From Bacteroidales bacterium (GTDB taxonomy: Bacteria; Bacteroidota; Bacteroidia; Bacteroidales; WRLA01): a stretch of 64,000 bases of DNA. The stretch covers positions 4,732,555 through 4,796,554 of the forward strand of contig OY781097.1 of NCBI GenBank assembly GCA_963676415.1. The letters run 5' to 3'. A program made the position numbers and the translations under genes. Every line of letters starts with the position of its first letter. Positions within the stretch are counted from its first letter, which is position 1. The notes under the pieces were generated by a model, which made no database searches, was not told where the DNA came from, and was given only the letters and a program-made list of their open reading frames with translations. Of the stretch, positions 3,001 to 63,996 are shown one piece after another.

Positions 3001-6000
3001 GCTTTACAATGTAACACTCACGGTTGTCAATGCACACGGCTGCAGTAATGCCACTACCCTACCCATCGAAGTGCTCAACGCTCCTGTAGCTGATTTCGAA
3101 GCGGACACCGCTTGTAAAGGGACACCAACTTACTTCAATAACCTGTCCTATGATATCGACGATGTAATTGTAAGCTGGTACTGGGACTTTGGCGATGGCT
3201 CAACAAGCACGCTCCAATATCCGTATCACACCTACGACGAAGCAGGCACGTATATCGTTTCGCTGGTCGTAACCAATTCTATTGGCTGCACCGATAATAT
3301 TGCCAAAGAAGTTGTGGTTCATCACAATCCGGAAGTTGAATTCAGCTACACAGATCCAAGCTGTTTTGGCGATTCCATACAATTCTTTGATGAAACCTAT
3401 TTCACCGGAAGCAATATGGTGGACAGCTGGTTATGGTATTTTGGCGATGGCGATTCTTCCCTACTCGAAAACCCAAAACATTATTACGAATTGCCCGGCA
3501 TGTATGTGGTTACACTCCAGGTATATGATACCAGCGGGTGTTTCGGAAGCAAACAGGAAGAAATCTACATCCATGAACCACCGGCTGCCAATTTCAGCTG
3601 GATCGTTCAAAACTGTGATAGCGCTTACTTCACCGACCTGAGTTATGATTCTGACACCACAATCGTACATTGGCAATGGAATTTCGGTGATCCCGCATCG
3701 GGAAGCAATAATGTTTCCAATGACACAAATCCGGTGCATCAATATCTTGTTGGCGGCGATTATGAAGTCAACCTGATTGTCACCAGTGCGCACGGCTGCA
3801 TCGACAGCATCACCAAAACAGTTAATGTCAGTATGCCAGATGCAGGATTTACCGTTGATTCGGCCACACTCTGCAAGAATACGGCTACACAATTCTATGA
3901 CAACAGCAACCCCAATGGCGATTTTTTCGTAAGTTGGCTATGGGATTTCGGTGATGGCACAACCAGCACCCAAGAAAACCCAACACATAATTATGCCAAT
4001 GCAGGCAATTATTATGTCAGCCTGCTCGTCACCAATTCGCAGGGCTGTGAAGACACCGAAACGCACAGCGTACAAATCAATCACGGTCCGCTGGTTGATT
4101 TCGAATACAGCTACCCGAACTGCCTCGGCGACAGTATCCATTTCACCGACCTCACAAACACCTACGGTGGCGTACCGATCACCTCATGGTTCTGGGATTT
4201 CGGCGATGGCAACACCTCTACCGAGCAAAACCCGGGACACATTTACACCTCATCAGGCACCTACAATGTTTCCCTCAGGGTGAACGATGCCAGCAACTGC
4301 CCCGATTATCTGGTAAAACCGGTTTATGTCAGTCCGCTCCCAATGGCACATTTTGAGCACAACATCACCGGTTGCGACACGGTTCAGTTCACCGATCTTT
4401 CCACCGATATTGATACTACGATTGTCGCTTGGTACTGGAATTTTGACGATCCAACATCCGGCTACAACAACATCTCCACAAATCAACATCCTGTACACGT
4501 TTTCCACAACGCAGGCGATTATGATGTAAGCCTGATCGTAACCAACGCTTTGGGCTGCCAGGATACTATAAACCAAACAGTGAACATTTACCGCCCGGAA
4601 GCTGATTTCAGCATAAGCAGCGACAGCAGCTGTATGAATATTGAAGTCTATTTTACCGACGAAAGCGAAACCTATGGTGATGTGATCACTTCCTGGCTGT
4701 GGGAATTTGGCGACGGACAAACATCCACAGCACCGAATCCTTCGCATTCGTACAATGATTACGGTGTGTTTGACGTGAGTTTGACCATCACCACCGCTTA
4801 TGGCTGCTCCGATGTAAAAGTCCTCCCGCTTTATATTTATCCGGGACCGGATGCCGAGTTCTCCATGGAATACCCCAGTTGCCTCGATGATTCCATTCAG
4901 TTCACCAATGAATCCTCCGGCGCAGGCAATATGCCTCTTGTTGGCTTCTATTGGGAGTTTGGCGATGGCAGCACATCTACCGAAGAAAATCCAGCCCACG
5001 AATATGTTATGGCCGGAGAATATTTCGTAACACTGGAAGTTACCGACGAACGCGGCTGCACCAGCCAGATATCGCATCTGCTTACGGTCAGCGAACGTCC
5101 GATGGCCGGATTTAACTATGATGTACACCTTTGCGATACGGTATTCTTCGAAGATGCCTCCGAAGATAACGACACTACCATCGTAGCCTGGTTCTGGGAT
5201 TTCGGCGATCCGCTATCCATCTGGAACAACCAGTCCACACTGCAAAACCCAAGTCACGCCTACCATGAGGAAGGCGATTATACAGTAACCCTGATTGCAA
5301 CCAATGCCTATGGCTGCCGCGATACCGTTCAGGACATCATCACCATCATCAGGCCGGAAGCCGATTTTACTGTAAACGATGACTCTGTTTGCCTCGGAAC
5401 AGCCATTGCCTTTGAAGACATCTCCGATCCACATGGCGGCAATATTATTGACTGGTTCTGGGATTTCGACGACGGAAACACAGCCAACGTTCATAACATA
5501 TCGCATGTTTATGACGAGCCCGGCACTTATTACGTTAGCCTGACCATCACCAACTCACTGGGCTGCCAGGACAATAAAGTCAAGCCGGTTCATGTGTTCT
5601 ATCCTCCTGTAGCTCAGTTTACTTATGATGATGTTACCTGCCTCGGCGATTCCATACATTTTGAAAACGAATCATATACCACAGGCGTAAATTCTATTGT
5701 AAGCTATAACTGGAACTTTGGCGATGGCAGCACATCCACTGAAGAAAATCCGGTGCATTATTTTGATGATCCCGGTTCATATTTCATAACACTTACCATC
5801 ACTGATGATGCCGGTTGTATTGATGTTGCTTCGGAATATATTGAGATATATCCCGCACCATTTGGTAATTTCAACTTCCAGACGGTGGATTGCGACACAA
5901 CCTATTTTACAGACGAAACCATCGACAATAATGCAGCAATCACAAGCTGGTACTGGGATTTTGATGATCCTGCTTCGGGGTGGCAAAATTACAGTACGGC

Positions 6001-9000
6001 ACAAAACCCATCGCACCGCTTCCTCAATGCAGGCGATTATGAGGTACAGCTGATTGTTACCAATGCACTGGGCTGCGTGGACACTGTGTTGCGCACTGTC
6101 AGCATCCACCTGCCCACCGCAGAATTCAGCACCGATGTGGTTTGTGCAGGCTTACCTACCACGTTCACAGATGAATCAAGTGGCAACGGCAGCGCCATTG
6201 TAAGCTGGTTCTGGGAATTTGGTGATGGCGGAACATCAACAATACCAAGTCCTTCCCATACCTATACCAACAGCGGAATCTTCCTGGTGACCCTCACAGT
6301 AACCAATAATGCCGGCTGCATTAGTCAAAAAACCGAGCAAGTCGTTGTGAACCATTTGCCTATTGCCAATTTCACACATGATGCACCAAACTGTAACGGT
6401 TTGCCTGTTCAATTTACTGATGCATCGAGTATGGCCGGAGGAACAGCCATTACAAGCTGGAACTGGGATTTCGGTGACGGATTTACCAGCACCGAACAAA
6501 GCCCAAGTCATCTGTATGAGGCCGCAGGAAGCTACTTTGTTGTTCTGACGGTGGAAGGAGCCAATGGCTGTGCCGATGACACTACCATGACGGTTACCAT
6601 AAACCCAACACCTGATGCAAACTTTGTTTATAATATCGTAAACTGCGACACCTCTTATTTCACGGACATCAGTGCTCCGGGTGGTGCAAATATTATTTTC
6701 TGGGAATGGAATTTTGATGACCCGGCTTCGGGTTTCTTCAACACCTCCAATGAGCAAAACCCATGGCATGTGTACGAAACAGCCGGAACCTACAATGTTC
6801 AGCTCATCGTGACCAATACCAATTACTGTAAAGACACTATTGTTAAACCGCTGATTTTCGATCCTCCAGCAGTACCGGAATTCACCTACGATACTGTATG
6901 TTTTGGCGACAGCACGCATTTCACAAACCTTTCTACAGGTCCGAATATCCTGCTCTACGAATGGACATTCGGAGATGGATTCTTCTCCTACGACGAAAAT
7001 CCGGTACACAAATACACCGCTCCGGGCTCGTATAACGTAACTCTGCGTGTTACAAATTCAATGAGCTGTGTGGATTCCATCACACATGAGGTAATTGTTA
7101 ACCCATTGCCTGATGTGGCTTTCACAACTTCCGACAGTGTTTGCTTCGGAAATTCAGTCAATTTCTTCGATCAAACGATTCCAAATGCCGATAGTATCAG
7201 CGCATGGCTGTGGAATTTCGGCGATGGAAGCACTGCAACGGTACAAAACCCAACACACGATTACGCCAGTGGTGGCAGCTTTGTGGTAAGCCTCACCGTA
7301 ACCAACTCCAATGGCTGTGTTGATTCAGCTGTGCAGGCTGTCTTTGTCAATCCGCTGCCGGTTGCCGATTTCACTTTCGATTCGGCTTGCCTCGGCTACC
7401 CGACACAATTCTTCGATCAGTCCACATCACAATATAGCTATATCGTAAACTGGCAATGGGATTTCGGCGATGGCTCCGACACACTCGGCCTCCCGAACCC
7501 ACCGCACGTTTATGAAAACTATGGCGATTTTGATGTGACGCTTATTGTGGGCGACCTGCTCGGTTGCACCGATACAATTACAAAAGAAGTACATGTGCAT
7601 CAGCCACCAACCGCTGATTTCACGGTTTCTTCCGATACCATTTGTTTGGGCGACACCACTTTCTTCATCGACCAATCCATTGGCAACGAAGCCGGAATTG
7701 CAAGCTGGAACTGGTATTTCGGTGAGCCATCATCCGGCGCAGCCGACTCCAGCGAACTGCAAAACCCAATTCATGTCTATGATACCGCAGGAACATATTA
7801 TGTGCTGCTCATCGTAACCGACAGCAACGGCTGTGTGGGCGATATCCTGAAGCCCGTTGTGGTAAATCCAAAACCCATCGCCAACTTCACATATTCCGCA
7901 GCATGCTCCAATGAAGGTGTTGAGTTTATCGACTTATCGGCCATTAACCAGGACGAAATCGTAAGCTGGAACTGGAACTTTGGCGATGGAGAAACATCTA
8001 CGGAACAAAACCCAATACACTTTTACGACCCAACAAATGTGGATACAACATACAGCGTAACACTTACAGTACAGGCATTGAACGGATGTATCGACAGTGT
8101 AACGCAGGACGTGTCCATTACCGCGGCACCGGTTGCTGATTTCAGCTATGCCGATGCCTGCCTGGGCTATCTGGTAGATTTCACGGATCTGTCGTCCACC
8201 TACAGTGGAATGATTGTGGACTGGCAATGGGATTTCGGTGACGGGGCAACATCAAGCCAGCAGCACCCATACCATTTATATGCACTTGCCGATACTTTTG
8301 ATGTGCAGTTGATAGTGACCAATTCCTGGGGCTGCGTGGACACTACGGTGAAATCCGTCATCATCCACAATTTGCCACTGCCCGAGTTTGAAGCCGATAC
8401 CGTTTGCTTTGGCGATACCACACATTTCACTGATTTGTCCTTCTCGGAAGGCGAAGTAAGCGAATGGCTGTGGCATTTCGGTGATCCATATTCCGGCGAC
8501 AGCGACACCTCAACATTGCAGAACCCCGAGCACTGGTACACCCGTGCAGGAATTTTCAATGTAACACTGGAAGTTGCCGACACCAACGGATGCCGCACTT
8601 CAATAATGCAACAGGTACTGGTGAATCCACTGCCGGTTGCTGAATTCCATTTCGAATCAGCGACTTGCCAAAACCAGGCCATCGACTTCGAAGACCGCTC
8701 GTACAGTCCGGGAGGAGCCATACACGAATGGCACTGGGATTTCGGCGACGGAACCGTCATCACAATTTATCATCCCGGCAATCCGGATGTAAGCCATACC
8801 TACACCGAACAAGGCAACTTTACCGTTGGCCTTACCGTGGTCGATACTAACGGCTGTAGCGAATACACCGAACATTACATCACGGTATATCCGCTCCCAA
8901 CGGCCAATTTCACATTCTCGGATACCGCTTGCGAAGCCGCCCTGATTTACTTCCAGGATTCGTCCATAGCGCAAAACACTCAGCTAAAATCCTGGTTCTG

Positions 9001-10690
9001 GGACCTTAATTATCCAAACCAGTATTACAGCCCGCTGCAAAATCCATATTTTTATTATCCTGAAACCGACATGACCTACACTGTTATGCTGGCCGTTGAG
9101 GATCAGCACGGTTGTGTGGATACCATATTCAAACAGGTTTATGTGAAAAAAGGATTTGAAATCGACTTCCTTGCAGATACGGTTTGTTTTGGAACGCCGA
9201 CCAGCTTTACCGATTCGGTACTTTCGCCCACAGGTGATTCGCTGATTAACTGGAGCTGGAATTTTGGTGATGGAGCTACATCATCCGAAGAAAGCCCGCA
9301 AAACACTTTTGACAATCCCGGCATGCACTTCGTAAGCTTGCAGGCCAATAATCAGGATGGATGTCCGGCTACGGCCACCAAGGAAATCCTGGTTTATGCA
9401 TTGCCCGAACCGGCATTCCGTGCGGCGCCGGCAGGTTGCGAAGACAGCACTGTATTTGAAGACCTGAGCCTTTACCAGAGCGATTCGGTAAACAGCTGGA
9501 CATGGCGCTTTGGCGATGGAACGGACACTACCATTTTATGGCCCGACAGCCCGGATGTGTTCCATTTCTATCCACCGCAGGACAGCACTTATCTGGCAAC
9601 GCTCATCATCGAAAACAGCCGCGGCTGTATCGATTCCATCCAGCAGGATGTCGTGCGTTATCCATGCCTCTTTGTTGATTTTGGCGAAGAAGGCGTGCTC
9701 TGCGACGGTCAAACCGCTACTTTCCGCGATTACAGTTTCACAGGAAGTGAAGATGTGCAAATGCTCGACTGGGAATGGTTCTTCGGCGATGGCAATTCGG
9801 TTTATTATACCGAGCAGCAGGATACACTTTACCACACCTATGCCGCTCCGGGCACATACATGGTAGAACTGGTCATCCGTGCCGAAGGAAATAACGGCAT
9901 CGTACGCGATACTTCACGCCATGAAGTGACCGTTTACAACTCGCCCCAGTCTGAGTTTAATTTCGATAAGTTCTGCGTGAAAGCACCCACGGAGTTTACC
10001 GATTACTCCTTCGTTGACTTTGGCGAAATCGACCGCTGGTACTGGAATTTCGGTGATGGATTTACCAGCCGCCTGCAAAACCCGGAACATGTTTACTTCC
10101 AGGATTCGGTTTATGAAGTGCAACTCGTAACCCAAACCACCGACGGCTGTACCGATACGGTAAAACATAACTTAGAAATCCACGCACTGCCGGAAGTTTA
10201 TCTGGTACCTGATGAAAACAGGGGCTGCGGTGACTCGCTCCGCTTTACTTTCCGCGATACCAGCGCGCAGCAACATGAAGTTTATCGCTGGACTTTTGAT
10301 GATGACGAATTCGTCAATACGGATGAAGACTTCATTAGCAAACTGTTCTATTATGGCGAACACGAAGTAAAACTCAGGGTAACATCGCCATGGGGCTGTA
10401 TCAACAGGGATTCTGCCAGCATTGAGCTCACAAGAAAACCCATTGCCGGCTTCCATCTCTACTCCGACAGCATCAGCATTCTGAACCCACGAGTTCAGAT
10501 TACCGACGAATCGGAAAGCATGGACGCCCTGATCGAATACTGGCACTACAGCTTGGGCAACGGATACGATACCCTGACGCGCACTTTCGACTATATGTAC
10601 AGCGATACAGGACATTACCATATCGAACAAATTGTTCAGGATTATAACGGCTGCCGCGATTCCATCTCGCATAAAGTCTTTATTTATCCC
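2..10690 (+). repeat. Tandem array of PKD-module coding repeats (~260 nt unit), with a higher-order ~760-nt three-module unit between ~3320 and ~6870
   Basis: The GDG-TST-QNP-H-Y motif recurs about every 85-90 codons. Module subtypes recur in the fixed order A-B-C, starting near 3320, 4080, 4840, 5600 and 6350. Confidence 0.85.
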
Positions 10691-10972
10691 GAGCTCACTT
10701 TCCATATTGCAAATGCGTTTACACCCAACGGAGACGGAGTTAATGCCACCTTCAAGCCGCAAGGCAGATATTTTGAAGATAAAGCATATAACTTCCAGAT
10801 TTTCAACCGATGGGGACAGTCCATTTTTGAAACATTTGACTATAATGAAGCCTGGGACGGAACCTTCAATGGCGATCCGGCCCCGGTTGGACTGTACACA
10901 TGGGTAATTACGGTTACAGATACCTGGGGTGTGACCTATACGTACGATGGCTATGTAGTTCTCATTAGATAG
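2..10972 (+). CDS. Giant secreted PKD-repeat protein, 5'-truncated by the window edge, with a T9SS type-B (gliding-motility-associated) C-terminal sorting domain
   Basis: The reading frame is open from base 2; residues before the GTG at 32 read YTFANWGIHQ, the tail of another PKD module. There are roughly forty tandem ~85-90 aa modules with the signature W-x-W-(D/N)-F-G-D-G-x-T-S-x-x-Q-N-P-x-H-x-Y ... G-C-x-D. The last ~90 aa carry NAFTPNGDGVNATF...FNRWGQ...WDG, typical of type-B T9SS CTDs. Confidence 0.9.
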   Translation, partial: YTFANWGIHQVELTVTDENGCLGTIQHNVVVDSLPFPGFTYDNQCVGEVINFTDTSHANGSPIVSWYWDFGDGHYSTQQNPTHIFTTHSPFTVSLTVTSARGCSDSISQVVLMNPPFDIDFSADSVCFGLETHFNDELLTPGTVIVSREWDFGDGNTGSGEDPTHTYALAGNYNVMLTAIDDWGCIKIVNHVIPVYPAPEPDFDYTTPCEGLATEFTDLTPVTGSGIASRLWKFGDGTTSTEQNPNHTYLNDDIYEVWLIIENGNGCIDSVSQNVPVYSVPVADFNTTHNCIGQPTHFIDNSSSPVGNIISWAWDFGDGNTSTDQNPTHYYAAAGDFTVELIVSNINSCTDTISKTVSIYPPPTADFSAAPLCLNNPTQFTDLSSAPGGNIVSWSWDFGDGYSSNDQSPAHTYAASGDYDVHLIVTDEEGCTNDTTKTITVYHLPAPNFTYINACENDTTYFFDASAPNGGSIASRLWKFGDGTTSTDENPWHIYSLGGIYDVTLIISNSNGCTDSIVKQVEVLPPPMADFNADSVCFGEPTHFFDNSSSTSGNINSWVWTFGDGDGSTDQNPVHTYAAQGIYDVQLIVTNLNGCRDTVVKEVVVHQLPVVDFESDEACLGDSTHFTDLSTSGGNLSSWFWEFGDGNTSTVQNPTHLFASAGTFNTTLTVSDEFGCQSDHSENVIVHPLPVAAFSFNSVTCSNDTIFFTDESSSAAGISSWLWDFGDGATSTAQNPWHIFPSGGSNFVTLTVTDGNGCVNSITHELYIAPPPEADFEYSGTCASMTTQFTDLSSTIEGTLIYWHWNFGDPASGIYNTSELQNPTHIYTTEGDYQVQLIVRNTAGCEDTLVQTITIDPDPDADFTFNNPCAHDTSYFADASAPATAPINSWFWEFGDGHTSTDQNPWHLFTTSGQYMVSLTVTDDNGCANTETKMVVIYPLPTALFQVEPSCAGLITHFTDYSNGGGADITNWYWDFGDPTSGANNYSTAQNPTHIFSTAGLYNVTLTVVNAHGCSNATTLPIEVLNAPVADFEADTACKGTPTYFNNLSYDIDDVIVSWYWDFGDGSTSTLQYPYHTYDEAGTYIVSLVVTNSIGCTDNIAKEVVVHHNPEVEFSYTDPSCFGDSIQFFDETYFTGSNMVDSWLWYFGDGDSSLLENPKHYYELPGMYVVTLQVYDTSGCFGSKQEEIYIHEPPAANFSWIVQNCDSAYFTDLSYDSDTTIVHWQWNFGDPASGSNNVSNDTNPVHQYLVGGDYEVNLIVTSAHGCIDSITKTVNVSMPDAGFTVDSATLCKNTATQFYDNSNPNGDFFVSWLWDFGDGTTSTQENPTHNYANAGNYYVSLLVTNSQGCEDTETHSVQINHGPLVDFEYSYPNCLGDSIHFTDLTNTYGGVPITSWFWDFGDGNTSTEQNPGHIYTSSGTYNVSLRVNDASNCPDYLVKPVYVSPLPMAHFEHNITGCDTVQFTDLSTDIDTTIVAWYWNFDDPTSGYNNISTNQHPVHVFHNAGDYDVSLIVTNALGCQDTINQTVNIYRPEADFSISSDSSCMNIEVYFTDESETYGDVITSWLWEFGDGQTSTAPNPSHSYNDYGVFDVSLTITTAYGCSDVKVLPLYIYPGPDAEFSMEYPSCLDDSIQFTNESSGAGNMPLVGFYWEFGDGSTSTEENPAHEYVMAGEYFVTLEVTDERGCTSQISHLLTVSERPMAGFNYDVHLCDTVFFEDASEDNDTTIVAWFWDFGDPLSIWNNQSTLQNPSHAYHEEGDYTVTLIATNAYGCRDTVQDIITIIRPEADFTVNDDSVCLGTAIAFEDISDPHGGNIIDWFWDFDDGNTANVHNISHVYDEPGTYYVSLTITNSLGCQDNKVKPVHVFYPPVAQFTYDDVTCLGDSIHFENESYTTGVNSIVSYNWNFGDGSTSTEENPVHYFDDPGSYFITLTITDDAGCIDVASEYIEIYPAPFGNFNFQTVDCDTTYFTDETIDNNAAITSWYWDFDDPASGWQNYSTAQNPSHRFLNAGDYEVQLIVTNALGCVDTVLRTVSIHLPTAEFSTDVVCAGLPTTFTDESSGNGSAIVSWFWEFGDGGTSTIPSPSHTYTNSGIFLVTLTVTNNAGCISQKTEQVVVNHLPIANFTHDAPNCNGLPVQFTDASSMAGGTAITSWNWDFGDGFTSTEQSPSHLYEAAGSYFVVLTVEGANGCADDTTMTVTINPTPDANFVYNIVNCDTSYFTDISAPGGANIIFWEWNFDDPASGFFNTSNEQNPWHVYETAGTYNVQLIVTNTNYCKDTIVKPLIFDPPAVPEFTYDTVCFGDSTHFTNLSTGPNILLYEWTFGDGFFSYDENPVHKYTAPGSYNVTLRVTNSMSCVDSITHEVIVNPLPDVAFTTSDSVCFGNSVNFFDQTIPNADSISAWLWNFGDGSTATVQNPTHDYASGGSFVVSLTVTNSNGCVDSAVQAVFVNPLPVADFTFDSACLGYPTQFFDQSTSQYSYIVNWQWDFGDGSDTLGLPNPPHVYENYGDFDVTLIVGDLLGCTDTITKEVHVHQPPTADFTVSSDTICLGDTTFFIDQSIGNEAGIASWNWYFGEPSSGAADSSELQNPIHVYDTAGTYYVLLIVTDSNGCVGDILKPVVVNPKPIANFTYSAACSNEGVEFIDLSAINQDEIVSWNWNFGDGETSTEQNPIHFYDPTNVDTTYSVTLTVQALNGCIDSVTQDVSITAAPVADFSYADACLGYLVDFTDLSSTYSGMIVDWQWDFGDGATSSQQHPYHLYALADTFDVQLIVTNSWGCVDTTVKSVIIHNLPLPEFEADTVCFGDTTHFTDLSFSEGEVSEWLWHFGDPYSGDSDTSTLQNPEHWYTRAGIFNVTLEVADTNGCRTSIMQQVLVNPLPVAEFHFESATCQNQAIDFEDRSYSPGGAIHEWHWDFGDGTVITIYHPGNPDVSHTYTEQGNFTVGLTVVDTNGCSEYTEHYITVYPLPTANFTFSDTACEAALIYFQDSSIAQNTQLKSWFWDLNYPNQYYSPLQNPYFYYPETDMTYTVMLAVEDQHGCVDTIFKQVYVKKGFEIDFLADTVCFGTPTSFTDSVLSPTGDSLINWSWNFGDGATSSEESPQNTFDNPGMHFVSLQANNQDGCPATATKEILVYALPEPAFRAAPAGCEDSTVFEDLSLYQSDSVNSWTWRFGDGTDTTILWPDSPDVFHFYPPQDSTYLATLIIENSRGCIDSIQQDVVRYPCLFVDFGEEGVLCDGQTATFRDYSFTGSEDVQMLDWEWFFGDGNSVYYTEQQDTLYHTYAAPGTYMVELVIRAEGNNGIVRDTSRHEVTVYNSPQSEFNFDKFCVKAPTEFTDYSFVDFGEIDRWYWNFGDGFTSRLQNPEHVYFQDSVYEVQLVTQTTDGCTDTVKHNLEIHALPEVYLVPDENRGCGDSLRFTFRDTSAQQHEVYRWTFDDDEFVNTDEDFISKLFYYGEHEVKLRVTSPWGCINRDSASIELTRKPIAGFHLYSDSISILNPRVQITDESESMDALIEYWHYSLGNGYDTLTRTFDYMYSDTGHYHIEQIVQDYNGCRDSISHKVFIYPELTFHIANAFTPNGDGVNATFKPQGRYFEDKAYNFQIFNRWGQSIFETFDYNEAWDGTFNGDPAPVGLYTWVITVTDTWGVTYTYDGYVVLIR

Positions 10973-19100: not shown

Positions 19101-19129
19101 GGGTCGAATGAAAATTCGACCCTTTTTTT
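19101..19129 (+). terminator. Rho-independent terminator of the aminotransferase gene
   Basis: GGGTCGAAT-GAAA-ATTCGACCC followed by T7. Confidence 0.8.
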
Positions 19130-19217
19130 ATCGTGCATGCAATCCGCATTCTTTCAATTCGGGGTTTTCCCACCACCATCTTCCGGCGCGGACATCCTCT
19201 CCGGGTTCAATGGCACG
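19126..19217 (-). repeat. Orphan duplicate of the last ~90 nt of cysH (left copy of a 92-bp direct repeat)
   Basis: 89 of 92 positions are identical to 20159-20250, which holds the real cysH 3' end and stop. Confidence 0.9.
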
Positions 19218-19249
19218 AAAATTATCATTCGCTCATTTTTGAATCCATA

Positions 19250-19552
19250 TCATGTCACTGACAATCCAAGATTTTTACCCAGTCCTTCCTCGAAAATCTT
19301 AAACAAGGTAGATATTTGAATATCAATCTTCCCGTTTTCCAATCTTGAAATATAGCTTTTCTTTGTCCCCGTTTTATGCGCAAGATCCTCCTGAGTCATT
19401 CTGGCTTCTCTTCTTGCTTCCCGCACCATTTCACCAATAATAAATGATTTAGCCCGTGCTTCAAAAGCATCTCTTTTTTCTGTGCCTACAGCACCATATT
19501 TTATATTCAGTAGCTCATCAAATGTTTTTGCCTCTCTAATACTTTTCATCAT
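19250..19552 (-). CDS. XRE-family HTH antitoxin (HigA-like)
   Basis: EARMTQEDLAHKTGTKKSYISRLENGK helix-turn-helix. It overlaps the 3' end of the upstream toxin-like ORF, a toxin-first arrangement. Confidence 0.8.
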   Translation of the reverse strand: MMKSIREAKTFDELLNIKYGAVGTEKRDAFEARAKSFIIGEMVREARREARMTQEDLAHKTGTKKSYISRLENGKIDIQISTLFKIFEEGLGKNLGLSVT

Positions 19553-20066
19553 TCAACCCTTTCTTTTTAAAATATTCTTCCTTCAATCTTAAGGCATTAA
19601 TAATCTCACGTTTAGGAGTTTTTCTGCTCTTTTTTTGAAACCCTTGAAACAGAATCACAAGTTTTCCTTCATCAAAGCAACTAAAAATCCGATAACTATT
19701 ATTCCCTTTGCTAATCCGAATTTCATACAATCCTTGTGTTCCTTCAATGTGTTTTAAAAACCTTTGCGAAATCCTATCCACTGTTCTTACAATCTTAACC
19801 TGCTTTATTCATGAAATTTCGTCATGAGCGTTCAAACCGCAATAAGAGAAAGGAAGCGCAGGTTTTTGGCGCACAGGAATAGCCGTAGCTATTTTGAGCA
19901 CCAAAAAGATAGCATTCCTTTCTATTGCAGCGGTTTGGTCGCGTAATAGAATATTTTGTGAATAATGCAGGTTAAAGACATACTCAATTTTTTCCTGAGT
20001 CTGCTCATCAAGAGTAAGATAAAAGTCAATAAAATAATTCTCATAAAAACAGATCTCCCTAAGCAT
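19536..20066 (-). pseudogene. RelE/ParE-superfamily (phage Gp49-like) toxin gene interrupted by a MITE
   Basis: The N-terminal part MLREICFYENYFIDFYLTLDEQTQEKIEYVF (20066 downward) and the C-terminal part KIVRTVDRISQRFLKHIEGTQGLYEIRISKGNNSYRIFSCFDEGKLVILFQGFQKKSRKTP are in the same frame. They are separated by a 173-bp element plus a 4-bp duplication (177 nt), and the element contains a TGA. Confidence 0.75.
19799..19971. mobile_element. 173-bp MITE with imperfect terminal inverted repeats and a TTAA target duplication
   Basis: The ends CCTGCTTTATTCATGAAATTTCG (19799 onward) and CCTGCATTATTCACAAAATATTC (reverse complement of the other end) match at 12 of the first 13 positions. It is flanked by TTAA at 19795-19798 and 19972-19975. 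A second copy lies at 63861-63996. Confidence 0.75.
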
Positions 20067-20102
20067 ACCACAAAGTTAACAAATTTGTTAACTATATCAA
20101 AG

Positions 20103-20136
20103 AAAAAAAACCTGCTCCAAATTTTGTTGAGCAGGT
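20103..20136 (-). terminator. Hairpin terminator just downstream of cysH, located inside the inserted cassette
   Basis: CCTGCTC...GAGCAGG stem flanked by an A-run and a T-run, so it could act in both directions. On the minus strand it follows the cysH stop by ~25 nt. Confidence 0.6.
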
Positions 20137-20158
20137 TTTCAGGAATATTTTGAAAATC

Positions 20159-20250
20159 TTTTATCGCGCATGCAATCCACATTCTTTCAATTCGGGGTTT
20201 TCCCACCACCACCTTCCGGCGCGGACATCCTCTCCGGGTTCAATGGCACG
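20159..20250 (-). repeat. Right copy of the 92-bp direct repeat (functional cysH 3' end)
   Basis: See 19126-19217. Confidence 0.9.
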
Positions 20251-20862
20251 GGTGCAGGGCTGGCAGCCAATGCTCGGAAAACCTTTGTCGTGCAAGCGGT
20301 GATAAGGCACATTATTTTCGTGTATGTAATCCCAAACATCTTCTTCTGACCAATCGATCAGCGGATTGAACTTTACAAGGCCGTTGTTTTCGTCCCATTC
20401 GATCATCTGTCCGTTGGTACGTGTAACCGACTGGCTGCGGCGCAAACCGGTAATCCAAACATCCAAAGAAGATAAGGCACGCTGCAAAGGCTCAATCTTG
20501 CGGATATGACAACAAAGTTTCCGGTTTTCCACGCTATCGTAAAAGAGGTTGATCCCTTTGGTGTTCACCATTTCTTCAATGCGCTTGTAATCCGGGAACA
20601 TCACCCGGATATTGATACCATAACGGCTGTTTGTTCGTTGAATCAGATCATAGGTCTCCGGGAAGACCCTCCCTGTATCGAGGGTAAAAATATCAGCATT
20701 TTTATCTGCAGTAAGCACCATATCGGTTAAAACCTGATCTTCGGCACCCATGCTCGATGACAATGCAATTTTTCCCTTAAAACGCTCATGCATTACCTTG
20801 ATGACCTTTTCAGGAGCTTGACCACGAAACTCTTTGTTCAGTTCTTCTGCTATCTCTTTCAT
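20161..20862 (-). CDS. cysH: Phosphoadenylyl/adenylyl-sulfate reductase (thioredoxin-dependent)
   Basis: PAPS-reductase fold with the C-terminal KECGLH motif, and a CC...CxxC-like cysteine set (LCCH, GCQPC) suggestive of the Fe-S APS-reductase type. Confidence 0.85.
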   Translation of the reverse strand: MKEIAEELNKEFRGQAPEKVIKVMHERFKGKIALSSSMGAEDQVLTDMVLTADKNADIFTLDTGRVFPETYDLIQRTNSRYGINIRVMFPDYKRIEEMVNTKGINLFYDSVENRKLCCHIRKIEPLQRALSSLDVWITGLRRSQSVTRTNGQMIEWDENNGLVKFNPLIDWSEEDVWDYIHENNVPYHRLHDKGFPSIGCQPCTRAIEPGEDVRAGRWWWENPELKECGLHAR

Positions 20863-37509: not shown

Positions 37510-37949
37510 GCCTGTAGTTTTTGGTTCAACAATTAGGTTTCGCATGCTAAAAAAGCCCTTATACACTGCATAAGAGCTTTTTTAGTGAGATTGTTCAAAT
37601 ATAGGAAAGATTCTCTGTTCCGACAAATAAGAGCCAAAGTTTTTCATTAAATCTTCATAAACAATTTTAGAGGTCAGTAGACAAATACATAGTTTATGAA
37701 CACCCGTTTATGAATAAATTTTCCTCTACCGAAGCTTCGGTATCTTCGAAATGACTTTTTAATCAGTTGTTTAGGCAAAGGCAGCGCATTTCGGCTTAAT
37801 CCAAATAATTCGCTTAATATGAGATTATTGCAAATTGCAATCATTTATAACAACAGGTCATCTTGATATACGCTTACCTACTTACCCCTAAACATTTTCC
37901 TACACCAAAAAAATCACGAAGAAAAAGGGGCTTCGCTTATCCACAAACA

Positions 37950-42013: not shown

Positions 42014-43123
42014 ATGCACTTAAAAAAACTCAAACTGGCCCAATTTAAAAACTGCTTGGAAGCAGATCTGGAATTATCAGAAAAAATCAATTGCTTTGTG
42101 GGATACAATGGCGCAGGCAAAACCAATATCCTCGATGCCATTTATTACCTTTCTTTTTGCAAAAGCTATTTCAATCCTTCCGACAGCCAGAACATCAAGC
42201 ATGGGGAAGATTTTTTTGCCATTCATGGCTATTACGAAAACAGCGCGGGCGAGGAAGACCTGGTGCAGTGCATACAGAAAAAAGGCCAGCCCAAGCAGTT
42301 CCGCAAAAACAAAAAAGACTACCAGCGCCTGGCCGATCATATCGGGCTTATCCCTTTGGTAATGATCAGCCCTTACGACCGCGACCTCATCAACGATGGC
42401 TCGGAGCTGCGCCGGAAATATATGGACAGCGTTATCGCACAATTTGATAAAGATTATCTGGACAATCTTATCCGCTATAATAAAAGTGTACAGCAAAGAA
42501 ATATCTTACTGAAACATTTTGCCACACAGCAGCAATTCGACCAAAACCTGCTTGAGCCCTGGGATCAGCAACTGATTGTGCTGGGAGAAAAAATCCATGA
42601 AGTGCGCAAGAAATTTATTGAAGAATTCGCGCCGGTTTTTCAGGATTATTACCGCTTTATTTCCGGGCAACAGGAGGAAGTAAGCATAGAATACAGTTCA
42701 CAGCTTTTGCAGCACAGCACCGAAGAACTGCTGCGCAAAAACCTGGAGCGCGACCGCATATTGAAATTTACCGGAAGCGGCGTACACCGCGACGACCTGA
42801 ATTTCAGGATTTCGGGATATCCTCTCAAAAAATTCGGCTCCCAGGGCCAGCAAAAATCCTTTGTTATTGCCATTAAGCTGGCACAATACAAGCACACCCG
42901 GATCATCAAAAATTTCAAACCGATTATTTTACTGGATGATATTTTTGACAAACTGGACGACAAACGGGTGGACCAGATTATTGAAATGGTGAGCAATGAC
43001 GGTTTTGGCCAGATTTTCATCAGCGACACACAGCGCGAACGCGTAGAACGGATTTTCCAACACCACAAAGTAGCGCACAGGATATTTTCGGTGGATGGAG
43101 GAATAATTCAGAATGAAAAATAG
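42014..43123 (+). CDS. recF: DNA replication and repair protein RecF
   Basis: Walker A GYNGAGKTNILDAIY, SMC-like signature GSQGQQKS, and Walker B ILLDDIFDKLD. Confidence 0.9.
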   Translation: MHLKKLKLAQFKNCLEADLELSEKINCFVGYNGAGKTNILDAIYYLSFCKSYFNPSDSQNIKHGEDFFAIHGYYENSAGEEDLVQCIQKKGQPKQFRKNKKDYQRLADHIGLIPLVMISPYDRDLINDGSELRRKYMDSVIAQFDKDYLDNLIRYNKSVQQRNILLKHFATQQQFDQNLLEPWDQQLIVLGEKIHEVRKKFIEEFAPVFQDYYRFISGQQEEVSIEYSSQLLQHSTEELLRKNLERDRILKFTGSGVHRDDLNFRISGYPLKKFGSQGQQKSFVIAIKLAQYKHTRIIKNFKPIILLDDIFDKLDDKRVDQIIEMVSNDGFGQIFISDTQRERVERIFQHHKVAHRIFSVDGGIIQNEK

Positions 43124-43194
43124 AATTAGGCCTCCACATACCAAACAAAGATGCCGGAGCGTTGTTATTTCTCAAACAAGAAACGCGTAAAAAA

Positions 43195-43425: not shown

Positions 43426-43553
43426 ACCTTGCCTAAGAAGTATCTGCTGTTTTTAAGCTGTTTTCTCATTTAGAAAAACCTTTGTATTGGCGTTGCAATG
43501 CCGTTGCAACACCGTTTCAACAGCATTGCAAGGCCAATGCAGATTATATAAAC

Positions 43554-43592
43554 GAAAGATTTACACCCATTCTTCCTTTAGCAATTCTCCCT
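43554..43592. repeat. Left copy of a 39-bp direct repeat (orphan copy of the 3' end, including the stop, of the 4Fe-4S gene)
   Basis: 37 of 39 positions are identical to 44119-44157. The reverse complement encodes GELLKEEWV-stop. Confidence 0.85.
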
Positions 43593-44118
43593 CCTGTTTT
43601 CCAGATAAGACACCAGTTTTTAACTTTAGGCATCTGTAAACTCTAAAAATATTGAATATAAAGCATGTCTTCGACCACTGTTTTTATTCCTTTTGTCTTG
43701 GCACAAAAGGAACCAAAAAGCCAAGTCAAAACAATGCTTCCCCCCGCTCTTCCCGATACCAAGAATTTCCAATCAAAGTAGTGCCTCGTGCCTCGGCAAA
43801 GCTGTTGCCCTTTGATGGAAATTCTAAGCATCGGGAATTCACCCTCATCCGGCCCGCTGTTTTGACAGGCCGCCCCACTGTCTAAACGAGGATGATTCTT
43901 GTTTTAAAAACAATTGGATTAAAATTTTCGTCTAACGTAAAATCAATAGACGTATGCGCATAACAGGAGAATAATCCTGATTGCACAAATATCTTTATTG
44001 CCAACAAATAGCTATTAAAATGAAATCAAGACGCCCAAACTCAAAGCATTAGCCTCATTAAAATATTGATATTAAGATAATTAACTTTTTGACTATTTAT
44101 TATCCAAAAAACAGAAAA
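43593..44118. mobile_element. Element E1: 526-bp non-coding insert (conserved core plus AT-rich arm)
   Basis: Homologous along its whole length to 45897-46397: the core is nearly identical and the arm roughly two-thirds identical by eye. It is bracketed by the 39-bp direct repeat. Confidence 0.7.
43665..43905 (-). ncRNA. Candidate structured RNA (conserved core of E1); strand tentative
   Basis: ~241 nt are nearly identical to 45969-46209, with a 1-nt indel that breaks any common reading frame. There is a 26-27-nt imperfect hairpin (43752-43778 with 43810-43835) and a 9-bp hairpin (TCCTTTTGT/ACAAAAGGA). Two plus-strand A.C/C.A mismatches become G.U on the minus strand. Confidence 0.35.
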
Positions 44119-44157
44119 GAAAGATTTACACCCATTCTTCCTTCAGCAATTCCCCCT
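44119..44157. repeat. Right copy of the 39-bp direct repeat (functional 3' end of the 4Fe-4S gene)
   Basis: See 43554-43592. Confidence 0.85.
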
Positions 44158-45028
44158 GCAAGCCAACAATAATGGATTTCACCGGCACTTTTCGGTTGGC
44201 ATTGGCCTGTGCAGCTTTCACGATATGGAGCAAACCGCTGCAACAAGGCACCTGCATCATCATCACTGTGATGGTATTCACTTTTGCGTCATCAATCATC
44301 ATGCGCACTTTTTCGATATAAGAATCTATGCCCTGATCCAGCTTGGGGCAAAGCACGGCCAGACTTTTGCCTTTAAGGTAATCCTGATGGAAATTTCCCA
44401 TAGAAAACGCAACACAATCGGCTGCAAGCAAAAGGTCGGAGTTTTGAAAATAGCTGGCATTGGGCTGCACGAGATGCATTTGCACCGGCCACTGCTTTAG
44501 TTGGCTAGGCTGCGTTCCCAAGGCAGCAGCCGGCACATCCGGATCAATATTTCCAAAGTCCATACTTTTTGAGCCCGGACATCCCCCTCCTTGGTGATGA
44601 TGCATTTGAGCGACTTGCTGAACGGCTTGTGGTTTTTTGCCACTGTTATGCACCTCACGGATGACTTCTTTTACATCAAAATCAATTTTTCCTTCATTTT
44701 CGAGCAAATAATTTACGGCCTCTTTGAGATAAACCGTTTCATTATGATCTTTCAGGTGCTTCATATGTGCCAAGACCGTATTGCGGCCTTTTTGGATCAT
44801 CAAGGCAATTACCTCTGTTTCGCTATAGGGCTGTGCTTCACGCTTTTCAATACTGATGGCGTCCTGCGGACAATGTCCCAGGCAGGCACCCAACCCATCG
44901 CACATCAAATCACTAACTAAGCGCGCTTTTCCATCAATGATCTGCAAAGCACCTTCATGGCATCCGGGCACACAAAGTCCGCAACCATTACATTTTTCTT
45001 CGTCGATATGAACAATTTCTCTTTCCAT
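44126..45028 (-). CDS. 4Fe-4S dicluster (ferredoxin-type) domain protein
   Basis: The N-terminal CNGCGLCVPGC ... CDGLGACLGHCP gives two CxxCxxCxxxCP-type clusters. The C-terminal domain has additional cysteines (VPCCSG). Confidence 0.75.
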   Translation of the reverse strand: MEREIVHIDEEKCNGCGLCVPGCHEGALQIIDGKARLVSDLMCDGLGACLGHCPQDAISIEKREAQPYSETEVIALMIQKGRNTVLAHMKHLKDHNETVYLKEAVNYLLENEGKIDFDVKEVIREVHNSGKKPQAVQQVAQMHHHQGGGCPGSKSMDFGNIDPDVPAAALGTQPSQLKQWPVQMHLVQPNASYFQNSDLLLAADCVAFSMGNFHQDYLKGKSLAVLCPKLDQGIDSYIEKVRMMIDDAKVNTITVMMMQVPCCSGLLHIVKAAQANANRKVPVKSIIVGLQGELLKEEWV

Positions 45029-45134: not shown

Positions 45135-45812
45135 ATGACAACTGCCGCATATCTCAGCCAATGCATTCTTTTTAAGGGATTAAAGGAGCATGAAATCGAA
45201 CTCCTTTTAAATCAAATCCATTATCAGGAAAAGAGTTTTAAAAGGGAATCTCTCATCGCACAAAGCGGAGATGAAACCACCGCCCAACTGATTCTTTTGA
45301 GCGGCAGTGTACGCGGTGAAATGATGGACTTCAATGGAAAAGCCATTAAAATTGAAGATATAAAAGCCGTACGTATGCTTGCTCCTGCATTTTTGTTTGG
45401 GAAGCAGAATCATTATCCGGTTTCCATTATTGCCAACGAAGAAAGCCGGGTTCTCCACATCCCCAAAAATGATTTCCTGAAATTGCTTGGCTCCAACGAG
45501 CTGATTTTAAGGAATTACTTAGATAATATTTCCAGCCGGGCCCAATTTTTATCTGAAAAAATTAAATTCCTGTTTTTCCAGGACATCAAGGGGAAACTGG
45601 CACATTATTACATGACAAAACTCAGGGAAAGCAGTTCTCAAACCATTAGAATGGAAAGTTCGCAGGAACAATTGGCGGTACTTTTTGGCGTTAGCCGTCC
45701 GGCATTGGCGCGGAGTATCAAAGAGTTGCGCGAAGATAAAATCATTGAAACACATGGAAAAGAAATCCGGATCCTGAATGTTCAGGCCTTAAAAGCCTTG
45801 GTCAGGGAATAG
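45135..45812 (+). CDS. Crp/Fnr-family transcriptional regulator
   Basis: N-terminal cNMP-binding-like beta-roll and a C-terminal HTH (SQEQLAVLFGVSRPALARSIKELRED). Confidence 0.85.
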   Translation: MTTAAYLSQCILFKGLKEHEIELLLNQIHYQEKSFKRESLIAQSGDETTAQLILLSGSVRGEMMDFNGKAIKIEDIKAVRMLAPAFLFGKQNHYPVSIIANEESRVLHIPKNDFLKLLGSNELILRNYLDNISSRAQFLSEKIKFLFFQDIKGKLAHYYMTKLRESSSQTIRMESSQEQLAVLFGVSRPALARSIKELREDKIIETHGKEIRILNVQALKALVRE

Positions 45813-45896
45813 TCCTAACCGCCAATTTTATAAGTCAATACAATACCCGAACCTCCACCGGGCATAATTGCCGGGGCAAAACTGAATTTCCTCTTT
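45740..45896. repeat. Left copy of a 157-bp direct repeat (functional Crp/Fnr 3' end plus an orphan PAP2 3' end)
   Basis: 154 of 157 positions are identical to 46398-46554. Confidence 0.9.
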
Positions 45897-46397
45897 CCAA
45901 ATTTCCTTATAAGACAGCCATTTGTAAAATAGAGTGTTAGTATTTCATATGGATACTGGATATCAATTATGCCTTCGACCGCTGTTTTATTCCTTTTGTC
46001 TTGGCACAAAAGGAAGCAAAAAGCCAAGTCAAAACAAAGCTTCCCCCCCGCTCTTCCCGATGCCAAGAATTTCCAATCAAAGTAGTGCCTCGTGCCTCGG
46101 CAAAGCTTTAGCCCTTTGATGGAAATTCTAAGCATCGGGAATTCACCCTCATCCGGCCCGCTGTTTTGACAGGCCGCCCCGCGGTCTAAACGAGGATGAT
46201 TTTTGTTTTGCAAACATTTTGACAAGATAAAAAATAATAGAAGTGATCTGATTTAAAACCCTTCATTATTAATACGTATGGCTGACAATTATCACTTAAG
46301 ATGAAATCAAAAACCATATTCTTACAGTTTAGAGCTATAAAATATTAATAATGAACAACTAATTTTATAATTGTATCAAATACAGAAAACACAAAAG
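45897..46397. mobile_element. Element E2: 501-bp non-coding insert, sibling of E1
   Basis: Same architecture and orientation as E1, bracketed by the 157-bp direct repeat. Confidence 0.7.
45969..46209 (-). ncRNA. Candidate structured RNA (conserved core of E2); strand tentative
   Basis: See 43665-43905. In this copy the A.C position of the long hairpin is a G-C pair. Confidence 0.35.
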
Positions 46398-46554
46398 AAT
46401 CATCGAAACACATGGAAAAGAAATCCGGGTCCTGAATGTTCAGGCCTTAAAAGCCTTGATCAGGGAATAGTCCTAACCGCCAATTTTATAAGTCAATACA
46501 ATACCCGAACCTCCACCGGGCATAATTGCCGGGGCAAAACTGAATTTCCTCTTT
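46398..46554. repeat. Right copy of the 157-bp direct repeat (orphan Crp/Fnr 3' end plus the functional PAP2 3' end)
   Basis: See 45740-45896. Confidence 0.9.
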
Positions 46555-47324
46555 TCGGCATCCATTCTTCCCGAAGCACGCTTATGAACAAAACGGCCAA
46601 TAGCATAGCCCAGAACAGAACCTGCAAGCACATCGGAAGCCCAGTGTTTGTTTCCGTATATGCGCGAGATGGCCGTAAGCCCTGCCAGACCGTAGGCGAT
46701 CCCTCCTACCCATTTATTTTCAGAATATTCGGAGGCTACAACCGCAGCCACAGCAAACGAAAGCGAAGAATGCCCGGAAGGAAAGGACAAAAAATCCGTA
46801 CTCAATGAAGGACCGCCCCAGATATAGGCATCCGGAGGCTCATGCTCGTTGGGGCGGTGACGATGAAAAAACATTTTGAAGCCTCCTGTAAAAACCGTGG
46901 TAACCATAAAAGCCCGAAAAGCAGTGAGGCTGGTAAAAGCAAGGCGGTCATTTTTCCCGATTCGGGCAGCGGTATAAGTCAGCCCCATCGCAGGCAGCAC
47001 ATATTGAAACGACCACATATCATTCAATAAATTCTCACTTTGCTGTGTGATAAAGGGCGAATCATGATCAAGCAAAAAAGTATGGATATCTTCATCAAAA
47101 ACCATCAATCCGCCGGTTACCGCTGCAAAGCCACCAAATTTTATCCATGATTTGCCGTCCCATTTCAGGGGAGCCAGACCCGTTTGAATAAAATCACCCC
47201 CAAAATCCTGAAACCATTGCCCGTTAATTCGTACCGGATAATGTACAGCACTGTCCTGAGCTTTTGCAGTTGTACGTGTTAGTCCCAGCAAAAGGATCAA
47301 AAAAAACAAATTCCTTAACCTCAT
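46473..47324 (-). CDS. PAP2-superfamily phosphatase
   Basis: Signal peptide plus the tripartite PAP2 signature (HRHRP, PSGHS, SRIYGNKHWASD). Confidence 0.85.
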   Translation of the reverse strand: MRLRNLFFLILLLGLTRTTAKAQDSAVHYPVRINGQWFQDFGGDFIQTGLAPLKWDGKSWIKFGGFAAVTGGLMVFDEDIHTFLLDHDSPFITQQSENLLNDMWSFQYVLPAMGLTYTAARIGKNDRLAFTSLTAFRAFMVTTVFTGGFKMFFHRHRPNEHEPPDAYIWGGPSLSTDFLSFPSGHSSLSFAVAAVVASEYSENKWVGGIAYGLAGLTAISRIYGNKHWASDVLAGSVLGYAIGRFVHKRASGRMDAEKRKFSFAPAIMPGGGSGIVLTYKIGG

Positions 47325-56442: not shown

Positions 56443-57054
56443 TCCGGCTAAGCAAACCAATACCTTCCGCAAGGCACAAAAGCAGCTTTCTTTCAACAGC
56501 TCTTGTTGCCTTGATATTTTCATGCGCATCAAAAATTATTTCTACGACTATGATCATCAATCTAAATACTTGAAGTAAATCCAACAAGACCTTAGCAATT
56601 ATTAAAAGCATGCGGGATTACGGCAATTTTGTAAGGCAAATTTTTACCGATTTTTTCGGTAATTTCCCGCAAAACCCTGATTATCCCTACAGGGGTTTTC
56701 CTGCTACCATCGCTATACCATCGCGCTACCAAGACGCTGCAAATACTTTGCGGGCAGCCGGCTGCTGCGGGCTTGCTTCGGGCAGATATTCTGTAAATAT
56801 ACTAATTAGAGTTTGTCCACAGAGTCGAGAGTTTGCTCTATAAAGTTCAAATTCAAGGCGTGTGAAAAATCCAAACCGGATAATACTCAAGTATTTGAGG
56901 ATTTGGATTTTGAGCAACAACGCAGAAGTTGGACTTTATAGACGAACTCCAATTAAGGCAAATTAGACCTACTCATCGGATGACTGGGAGTCATCCGATG
57001 AGTAGCGTTATCCGATGGGTGCTATGAATCATATGAGGTATCACGGAATATCAG

Positions 57055-58279: not shown

Positions 58280-58437
58280 AGCAATTGATTTTTGATGCAG
58301 CAAAGATAGGCAAGAATTATTAAAAAGCAAGAAAAATTTATTGTTAAACAATAATTTTATTTTGAATAACAATAATTACTCCTTATATTAGAGGTTCTAC
58401 ACTGTATTTCGTGGAAAGAAACTTGAATGCTATTCCA

Positions 58438-58649
58438 AACAGATTCCTCCAAAGTTTCCTCATACTTCGGAAAACTTTGTCGGAATGACGCGTTTTTATG
58501 AAGTCAGGAGGCAAATGCGGCGAGGACACAGTAGTATATTTTAAATACGTCCTCGCCGCATTTGCCTTAAACACCTAATAAACAGCGTCATTCCGACCGG
58601 AACAAAGCTAAACGAAATGATTAAAGCTTTGTGTAGGGAGGAATCTGTT
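58438..58649. repeat. 212-bp nested-palindrome element
   Basis: Three concentric perfect inverted repeats: AACAGATTCCTCC (58438-58450 with 58637-58649), GTCGGAATGACGC (58479-58491 with 58585-58597), and GGCAAATGCGGCGAGGAC (58510-58527 with 58549-58566). Confidence 0.8.
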
Positions 58650-58808
58650 AGGGATACCATAGGTCATTAATAAATATCTGCATATTTTTTTTCAAACATT
58701 ATTGTAACCCACGAAATTCCTAGTAGAACCATTTAGAATACAGCCTGGAAAGATAATTGTGCAAGCACTATTTTCCAGAATGCGCCGTTTATAAAGAAAG
58801 CCCATTTT

Positions 58809-63822: not shown

Positions 63823-63860
63823 AATTCAGCATTAATATTAAAGCTTTTTTTTGAGTTAAG

Positions 63861-63996
63861 CCTGAATAATTCACAAAATATCTATTACGGGCACAAACCG
63901 CTGCAATAGAAAGGAATGCTATCTTTTATTGCGTTTTGTACTTGGTCACTGAGCTTGTCGAATGTGCTCATGACGAAATTTCATGAATTAATCAGG
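63861..63996. mobile_element. Second, shorter copy (136 bp) of the MITE seen at 19799-19971
   Basis: Shares the left ~55 nt (CCTGAATAATTCACAAAATATCTATTACG..CAAACCGCTGCAATAGAAAGGAATGCTATCTTTT) and the right ~33 nt (GCTCATGACGAAATTTCATGAAT.A..CAGG), in the opposite orientation to the first copy. TTAA lies 1 nt before its left end. The right flank is cut by the window end. Confidence 0.65.

Follow-up and report, generated by a model that had tools for sequence, protein, structure and literature searches.

Within the window that we analysed, a stretch of 64,000 nucleotides from the genome of a Bacteroidales bacterium, a gene for a Crp/Fnr-family regulator (45135-45812, plus strand; 225 aa) converges on a gene for a PAP2-family phosphatase (46473-47324, minus strand; 283 aa). 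Both were taken from the list of open reading frames and carry the expected Pfam domains (cNMP_binding and HTH_Crp_2 in the regulator, PAP2 in the phosphatase). Between their coding ends lies E2, a non-coding insert of 501 bp (45897-46397, plus strand) that begins with CCAAATTTCC and finishes with CACAAAAG, and each of its sides is bordered by one copy of a 157-nt direct repeat (45740-45896 on the left and 46398-46554 on the right). A repeat search of the window and a scripted comparison agree with the original prediction that the two copies are identical at 154 of their 157 positions (98%). The three mismatches fall at 45746 (T/C), 45771 (A/G) and 45801 (G/A), and the similarity ends abruptly at both edges; a match of 157 nt between sequences 658 nt apart is far beyond chance. 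The reading frames and the Pfam domains also support the composition that had been proposed for the repeated unit, i.e., the last 73 nt of the Crp/Fnr gene, a 2-nt spacer and the last 82 nt of the PAP2 gene. In the left copy the spacer thus separates the functional end of Crp/Fnr (45740-45812) from an orphan PAP2 end (45815-45896), and in the right copy an orphan Crp end (46398-46470) from the functional end of PAP2 (46473-46554). That a tightly packed convergent pair had taken up an insertion without damage to either gene holds true as well, because both proteins keep the lengths of their orthologs in relatives that lack E2.

A sibling element of 526 bp, E1, occupies positions 43593-44118 of the plus strand, with CCTGTTTTCC as its first letters and ACAGAAAA as its last. 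The two elements match one family profile (E = 8e-112 for E2) and have in common a segment of 270 nt with 92% identity and the same orientation (43649-43918 in E1 and 45953-46222 in E2); relative to the minus-strand host gene E2 is oriented like E1, as had been noticed from the sequence. The duplication around E1 is 39 nt long, with two mismatches between its copies. The right copy (44119-44157) contains the working end and the stop codon of a minus-strand 4Fe-4S protein gene (44126-45028, Pfam Fer4), and the left one (43554-43592) is an orphan that carries two C-to-T changes. Between E1 and a small upstream gene there is a near-palindromic hairpin (43488-43536), probably the terminator of the convergent pair, which gave a spurious match below threshold to the Rfam family mir-33 on both strands.

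The origin of these duplications can be read from related genomes. An exact-protein look-up of the window Crp and PAP2 proteins gave no match, and relatives were reached by a homolog search with the Crp protein: L007, whose Crp is 90% identical to that of the window at the protein level, L008, which corresponds to the 5.14-Mb sequence OZ245940.1, and L009, a contig of 3.06 Mb. In all three the Crp/Fnr and PAP2 genes are convergent and separated by 2 nt, the 157 bp occur once and E2 is absent, with flanks that are continuous at the nucleotide level with those of the window. An uninterrupted Crp/Fnr-PAP2 junction, which the original prediction had pointed to as the comparison to be made, is therefore present in each of these relatives. 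The other possibility raised at that time, that one of the two copies had been imported with the element, does not survive the comparison, since the copies are equally close to the L008 ortholog (155/157 and 154/157 identical) and carry the same letter at all sites that distinguish the window from L008 or L009. Single-copy empty sites, together with two copies that both match the local lineage, argue that the 157-bp repeat is a true target-site duplication of local DNA, neither copy being foreign. E2 is an insertion, and its duplication is real and locally made. From the equal closeness to L008 and the shared sites it follows that the mismatches between the copies postdate the duplication, by mutation or by recombination between strains. 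In this regard, two of the three differences lie at sites that are polymorphic among related strains, and these may stem from inter-strain homologous recombination, as at E1.

The 39-nt repeat of E1 tells a similar story. In L009 and L007 the sequence GAAAGATTTACACCCATTCTTCCTTCAGCAATTCCCCCT is single-copy and E1 is missing, the right copy in the window being identical to the single copy of L009, while the OZ245940.1 genome (L008, where the E1 ortholog is our locus L003) carries E1 and the same 39-nt duplication. With the repeat single-copy in two relatives free of E1, these alignments argue that it is likewise a genuine target-site duplication. Moreover, a tract of 709 bp (43485-44193) that comprises E1 and about 100 bp of flank on each side differs from OZ245940.1 by only two mismatches and one 23-nt indel, whereas the adjoining genes are 92-97% identical between the two genomes. 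Such a near-identical tract within flanks that differ by 3-8% implies that the E1 insertion was recently moved between strains, or homogenised, by homologous recombination. The only three changes between E1 and its ortholog are clustered in the core of the element, and the 23-nt indel among them is common to the paralog L004, a pattern that would fit gene conversion among cores. At the same locus of OZ245940.1 we also find an insertion of 4.5 kb adjoining recF (L003, 1584-6052), missing from the window at 43107-43138, which contains two near-identical gene pairs for secreted proteins with C-terminal sorting domains.

E1 and E2 belong to a family, referred to here as the E family. A scan of the genome collection with a 20-mer from the conserved core gave six matches, all of them in OZ245940.1, which is closely related to the source genome. 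A seventh copy in the same sequence, L010, was found through the translation of a spurious ORF in the core, compared with 5.8 billion proteins. Altogether, two copies are present in the window and seven in OZ245940.1 (a 5.1-Mb Bacteroidales genome), with sizes of 335-834 bp. Five of those seven are flanked by direct repeats, whose identity ranges from 72% to 97%. L001 sits between two small convergent genes within a repeat of 164 nt (91% identity), and L004 between the convergent ends of a methyltransferase gene and ComEC within one of about 140 nt (77-87%), and in both cases the repeat covers the two gene ends. The repeat of L005 measures 222 nt (97%), that of the short copy L010 about 165 nt (72%) and that of L003, the ortholog of E1, 39 nt. 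No flanking direct repeats were detectable for L002 and L006, both of which have other insertion sequences nearby. The lengths for the family as a whole are therefore 39, about 140, 157, 164, about 165 and 222 nt, and repeat identities spread between 72% and 98% imply insertions of very different ages, which in turn indicates a family active repeatedly over a long period. In two short copies, L010 and L002, the right arm is missing together with its terminus; both break off at one and the same nucleotide, and in L010 the repeat of about 165 nt abuts this short end.

Searches beyond these genomes returned no further members. E2 had no BLAST match in the plasmid and phage collections, a pattern scan of viral contigs gave no match to the family, and in the JGI metagenome contigs the 20-mer from the core found nothing, whereas a 19-mer hit 36 loci that BLAST revealed to be chance matches in every case. 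An nhmmer run of the family profile over all the sequences gathered (the window and the loci) added no copies, and the E family is so far known from one Bacteroidales lineage only. Other repeats share these loci. A dispersed repeat of about 155 nt is found in the window at 56802-56955 and twice in L005 (3809-3964 and 4865-5020), where it is part of the 222-nt target duplication; the E-family copy there had thus entered another repeat element. The window copy was considered as an empty site for the repeat of L005 and rejected, as it is merely another dispersed repeat. Small palindromic dispersed repeats, made of nested inverted repeats up to 100% complementary, occur in the window (58380-58740 and 37663-37786) and in L005 (4260-4470), L010 (9419-9541) and L009 (1617-1749), and copies of them are nested in the A+T-rich arms of L005 and L001.

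An alignment of the copies divides the element into three parts. In E2, a fast-evolving left arm with the left terminus (45897-45988, plus strand; 64.9% mean pairwise identity among paralogs) is followed by a conserved, G+C-richer and structured core (45989-46217; 92.8% mean pairwise identity among eight paralogs) and by an A+T-rich right arm with the right terminus (46218-46397, plus strand), which aligns weakly to other copies (63-77%). The right arm was also examined as a separate nested MITE, an idea rejected because it is never found alone. E1 and E2, two independent insertions, have ends that are collinear to about 1 nt. The two consensus termini are similar when one of them is inverted (CCTGTTTTCCRGATAAGAC against the reverse complement YCTG.TTT..GGATTATAAA), but in local alignments of single copies the terminal inverted repeats reach only p = 0.06-0.7 against shuffled controls, and the tips of E2 are degenerate.

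The core, of about 230 nt, is predicted to fold into a 10-bp hairpin, a long hairpin of about 28 bp and a further stem, with folding z-scores of -6.6 and -6.0 and a strong fold on either strand. No match to Rfam was found in the window at gathering thresholds, nor for the core at E values up to 5. Indels in the core disrupt all reading frames and the element has no conserved ORF, from which we take it to be non-coding. The paralog alignment revealed no compensatory base-pair changes in the stems; several one-sided substitutions keep G-U pairs on the minus strand but give A.C mismatches on the plus strand, and hint, if weakly, at a minus-strand RNA. The Bacteroidetes promoter motif TAnnTTTG is not conserved anywhere in the element. 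In old copies, with flanking repeats now down to 72-87% identity, the cores are still 93-96% identical to the consensus. Cores so well preserved beside decayed repeats must have been constrained, or homogenised, in place, and probably the element requires its core, or gene conversion keeps the copies alike.

A third insertion in the window has a comparable architecture. A toxin-antitoxin cassette of 941 bp (19218-20158), with an HTH antitoxin-like ORF (19250-19552, minus strand) and a split RelE/Gp49-like toxin gene, lies inside a 92-nt repeat (19126-19217 and 20159-20250, 97% identical). The right copy forms the 3' end of a PAPS reductase gene (20161-20862, minus strand) and the left one is an orphan beside the terminator of a convergent aminotransferase gene. 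The cassette has no inverted termini and its ends are unrelated to those of E1 and E2, so in this lineage long duplications may be independent of any single set of termini. A clean empty site for the cassette was not found in the short contigs L048, which has the same junction, and L047, which has a different neighbouring gene. The toxin gene is split by a 173-bp MITE (19799-19971) with inverted termini of 19 nt (CCTGCTTTATTCATGAAA...) and a TTAA duplication, of which a second, partial copy is located near the end of the window (63856-63996); its termini match those of an IS1380-family insertion sequence at L002 (6236-7935) and L006 (1-856). At the other end of the window, an ORF of 3646 aa (32-10972) is composed of about 24 diverged tandem units of about 246 nt (82 aa) with a conserved W-x-F-G-D-G motif, and probably encodes a giant PKD-type repeat surface protein, the ortholog at L010 having PKD domains.

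To our knowledge, no more than two insertion sequences are on record as producing target duplications that are both long and variable, and how they do so has awaited an explanation since the late 1990s. IS1549 from Mycobacterium smegmatis and IS1634 from Mycoplasma mycoides are atypical members of the IS1634 family. According to a review of the IS4 superfamily, these two produce long variable direct repeats of 8-514 bp for which there is no mechanistic model, a trait exclusive to them in a family whose usual duplication is 5-6 bp and whose end consensus is C-----YT (PMC2266710). The target repeats of the E family are similarly long and vary from copy to copy (39 to about 222 bp). However, IS1549 and IS1634 are autonomous elements of 1.5-2 kb with a DDE transposase, whereas E1 and E2 are non-coding, measure 526 and 501 bp, and belong to a Bacteroidales family with a strongly conserved structured core. 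The sequences CCTGTTTT of E1 and CCAAATTT of E2 fit C-----YT, a three-base consensus that carries almost no weight in A+T-rich DNA. With no coding capacity of their own, and no IS1634-type transposase found in the window, E1 and E2 cannot be filed with the IS1634 family, of which they could at most be derivatives.

Small size, lack of coding capacity, multiple copies and flanking target duplications are features that the E family shares with MITEs, which are often intergenic and mobilised in trans, and its weakly inverted consensus termini may be a further one. Known examples such as Correia, RUP and ERIC have fixed short duplications of 2-10 bp, and the termini are their best-conserved part. 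In the E family, on the contrary, the duplications span 39-222 bp, the termini are poorly conserved and it is an internal core of about 230 nt that is kept. With the resident IS1380-family insertion sequence and its 173-bp MITE the family has in common the tip CCTG.TTT, but the duplications of those elements are of 4 bp (CTAA and TTAA); the IS1380-family element near two of the copies was for this reason rejected as a partner, there being no similarity beyond the tip. A resemblance also exists to the genomic islands found at gene 3' ends, in which the insert likewise lies between direct repeats and the gene that it enters retains a complete 3' end. Such islands, however, bring the restoring copy with them and use a fixed site, whereas the E family inserts at unrelated sites and both of its repeat copies are target DNA.

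Element ends that stay constant at unrelated targets, together with empty sites that have one copy and duplications of variable length, are most simply accounted for by staggered nicks followed by fill-in. On these grounds, the best explanation for E2 is probably a non-autonomous transposon of about 0.5 kb that inserted at staggered nicks in the target, with filling of the gaps; the nicking and fill-in mechanism as well as a transposase acting in trans are what we infer from the sequences. The ends of the element would have been joined to target strands nicked 157 bp apart, with one nick within the coding end of Crp/Fnr and the other within that of PAP2. Filling of the two single-stranded gaps would then have copied the 157 bp on both sides, so that each gene kept a whole 3' end and the remaining half of each copy became an orphan. 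A stagger that varies between 39 and about 222 bp would suggest that an enzyme acting in trans, with its gene at another place in the genome, transfers the strands in a loosely coordinated way. Pfam and ORF searches of the 64-kb window found neither a transposase nor an integrase gene, only housekeeping genes. The insertion of E2 is recent.

Several facts sit uneasily with this transposon. A partner enzyme did not come to light in the window, the terminal inverted repeats of single copies are weak, and E2, although inserted recently, has degenerate tips. The core is far better conserved than the termini, which a transposase reading the termini alone would not explain; the short copies L010 and L002 have no right terminus, yet L010 is flanked by its repeat of about 165 nt; and the 92-nt duplication around the toxin-antitoxin cassette, with its unrelated ends, hints at a process untied to the E-family termini. 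A minor possibility is that the structured core is a functional RNA or DNA structure that takes part in mobilising the element, the family representing an undescribed bacterial mechanism of insertion, maybe RNA-templated and maybe able to move other cargo such as the cassette at 19218-20158. If true, such a mechanism would duplicate 40-220 bp of its target and so could enter gene ends without destroying them.

Recombination or replication could also have given rise to the repeats, either by template switching at a stalled fork or by Campbell-type integration of a circle that carried the element and one target copy, an origin that we consider improbable. A cassette unrelated to the family and devoid of inverted termini in a long duplication of its own would be at home in such a process, as would the differences between the E2 repeat copies at strain-polymorphic sites (two of three), and the 709-bp tract around E1, near-identical within flanks 3-8% different, shows homologous recombination moving these inserts between strains. 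Nevertheless, the same element ends are found at unrelated sites, where template switching would give variable ends. A circle, for its part, would have had to be homologous to at least six different sites, to each of them before it first inserted there, and Campbell integration spreads insertions that already exist without being able to make new ones.

Insertion through an RNA is quite improbable. In such a case, a minus-strand transcript of the core, made in the direction of the upstream host gene, would be reverse-transcribed into a staggered break as in the target-primed reverse transcription of SINEs, a process that would yield variable duplications and 5'-truncated copies. Duplications as long and variable as those of the E family are consistent with this route, and L010 and L002 are missing exactly what would be the 5' region of the RNA, with the L010 repeat abutting the truncation. 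The one-sided stem changes that keep G-U pairs on the minus strand and leave A.C mismatches on the plus strand point in the same direction, as does a core much better conserved than the termini. However, both short copies stop at one nucleotide and not at random, there is no A-tail, the termini resemble inverted repeats, and neither compensatory changes in the core nor a conserved promoter motif of the Bacteroidetes type accompany the proposed transcript. Moreover, no reverse transcriptase gene is present in the window or in the fetched loci, and we know of no bacterial RNA-mediated (SINE-like) element of this kind.

The remaining explanations fare worse. We give almost no credit to a site-specific tyrosine or serine integrase acting on an element whose attachment site included substitute gene ends, like that of islands in tRNA genes: direct repeats that rebuild a gene 3' end are typical of such islands, but the repeats of E1, E2 and the other copies are unrelated, of differing lengths and at unrelated sites, no integrase gene exists in the window, and both copies of each repeat tested (E1 and E2) derive from a local target that is single-copy in the empty sites, a comparison in which this model and that of a foreign copy both fail. 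An assembly artefact, i.e., a false duplication from the joining of reads or strain variants, is very unlikely, since even if E2 itself is seen in one assembly only and two of its repeat differences coincide with strain polymorphisms, the source contig measures 4.86 Mb, a mis-join does not produce a 501-bp member of a defined family with ends that exactly abut the duplication, and the architecture of E1 is the same in two independent assemblies, with five further flanked copies in OZ245940.1.

Long target duplication is a known behaviour, though a rare and unexplained one, and the E family adds a small non-coding variant to it, whose duplications measure 39-222 bp and whose structured core is conserved. 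Its clean pairs of filled and empty sites, and insertions of several ages in complete genomes, make the question of long duplications tractable. A target duplication of about 150 bp lets an element enter the coding ends of packed convergent genes with both genes left unharmed, and elements that duplicate in this way gain access to sites in compact genomes that are closed to ordinary transposons. Homologous recombination between the long repeats also gives the element a ready means of precise excision, and the structured core is a candidate for a new non-coding RNA or protein-binding module.
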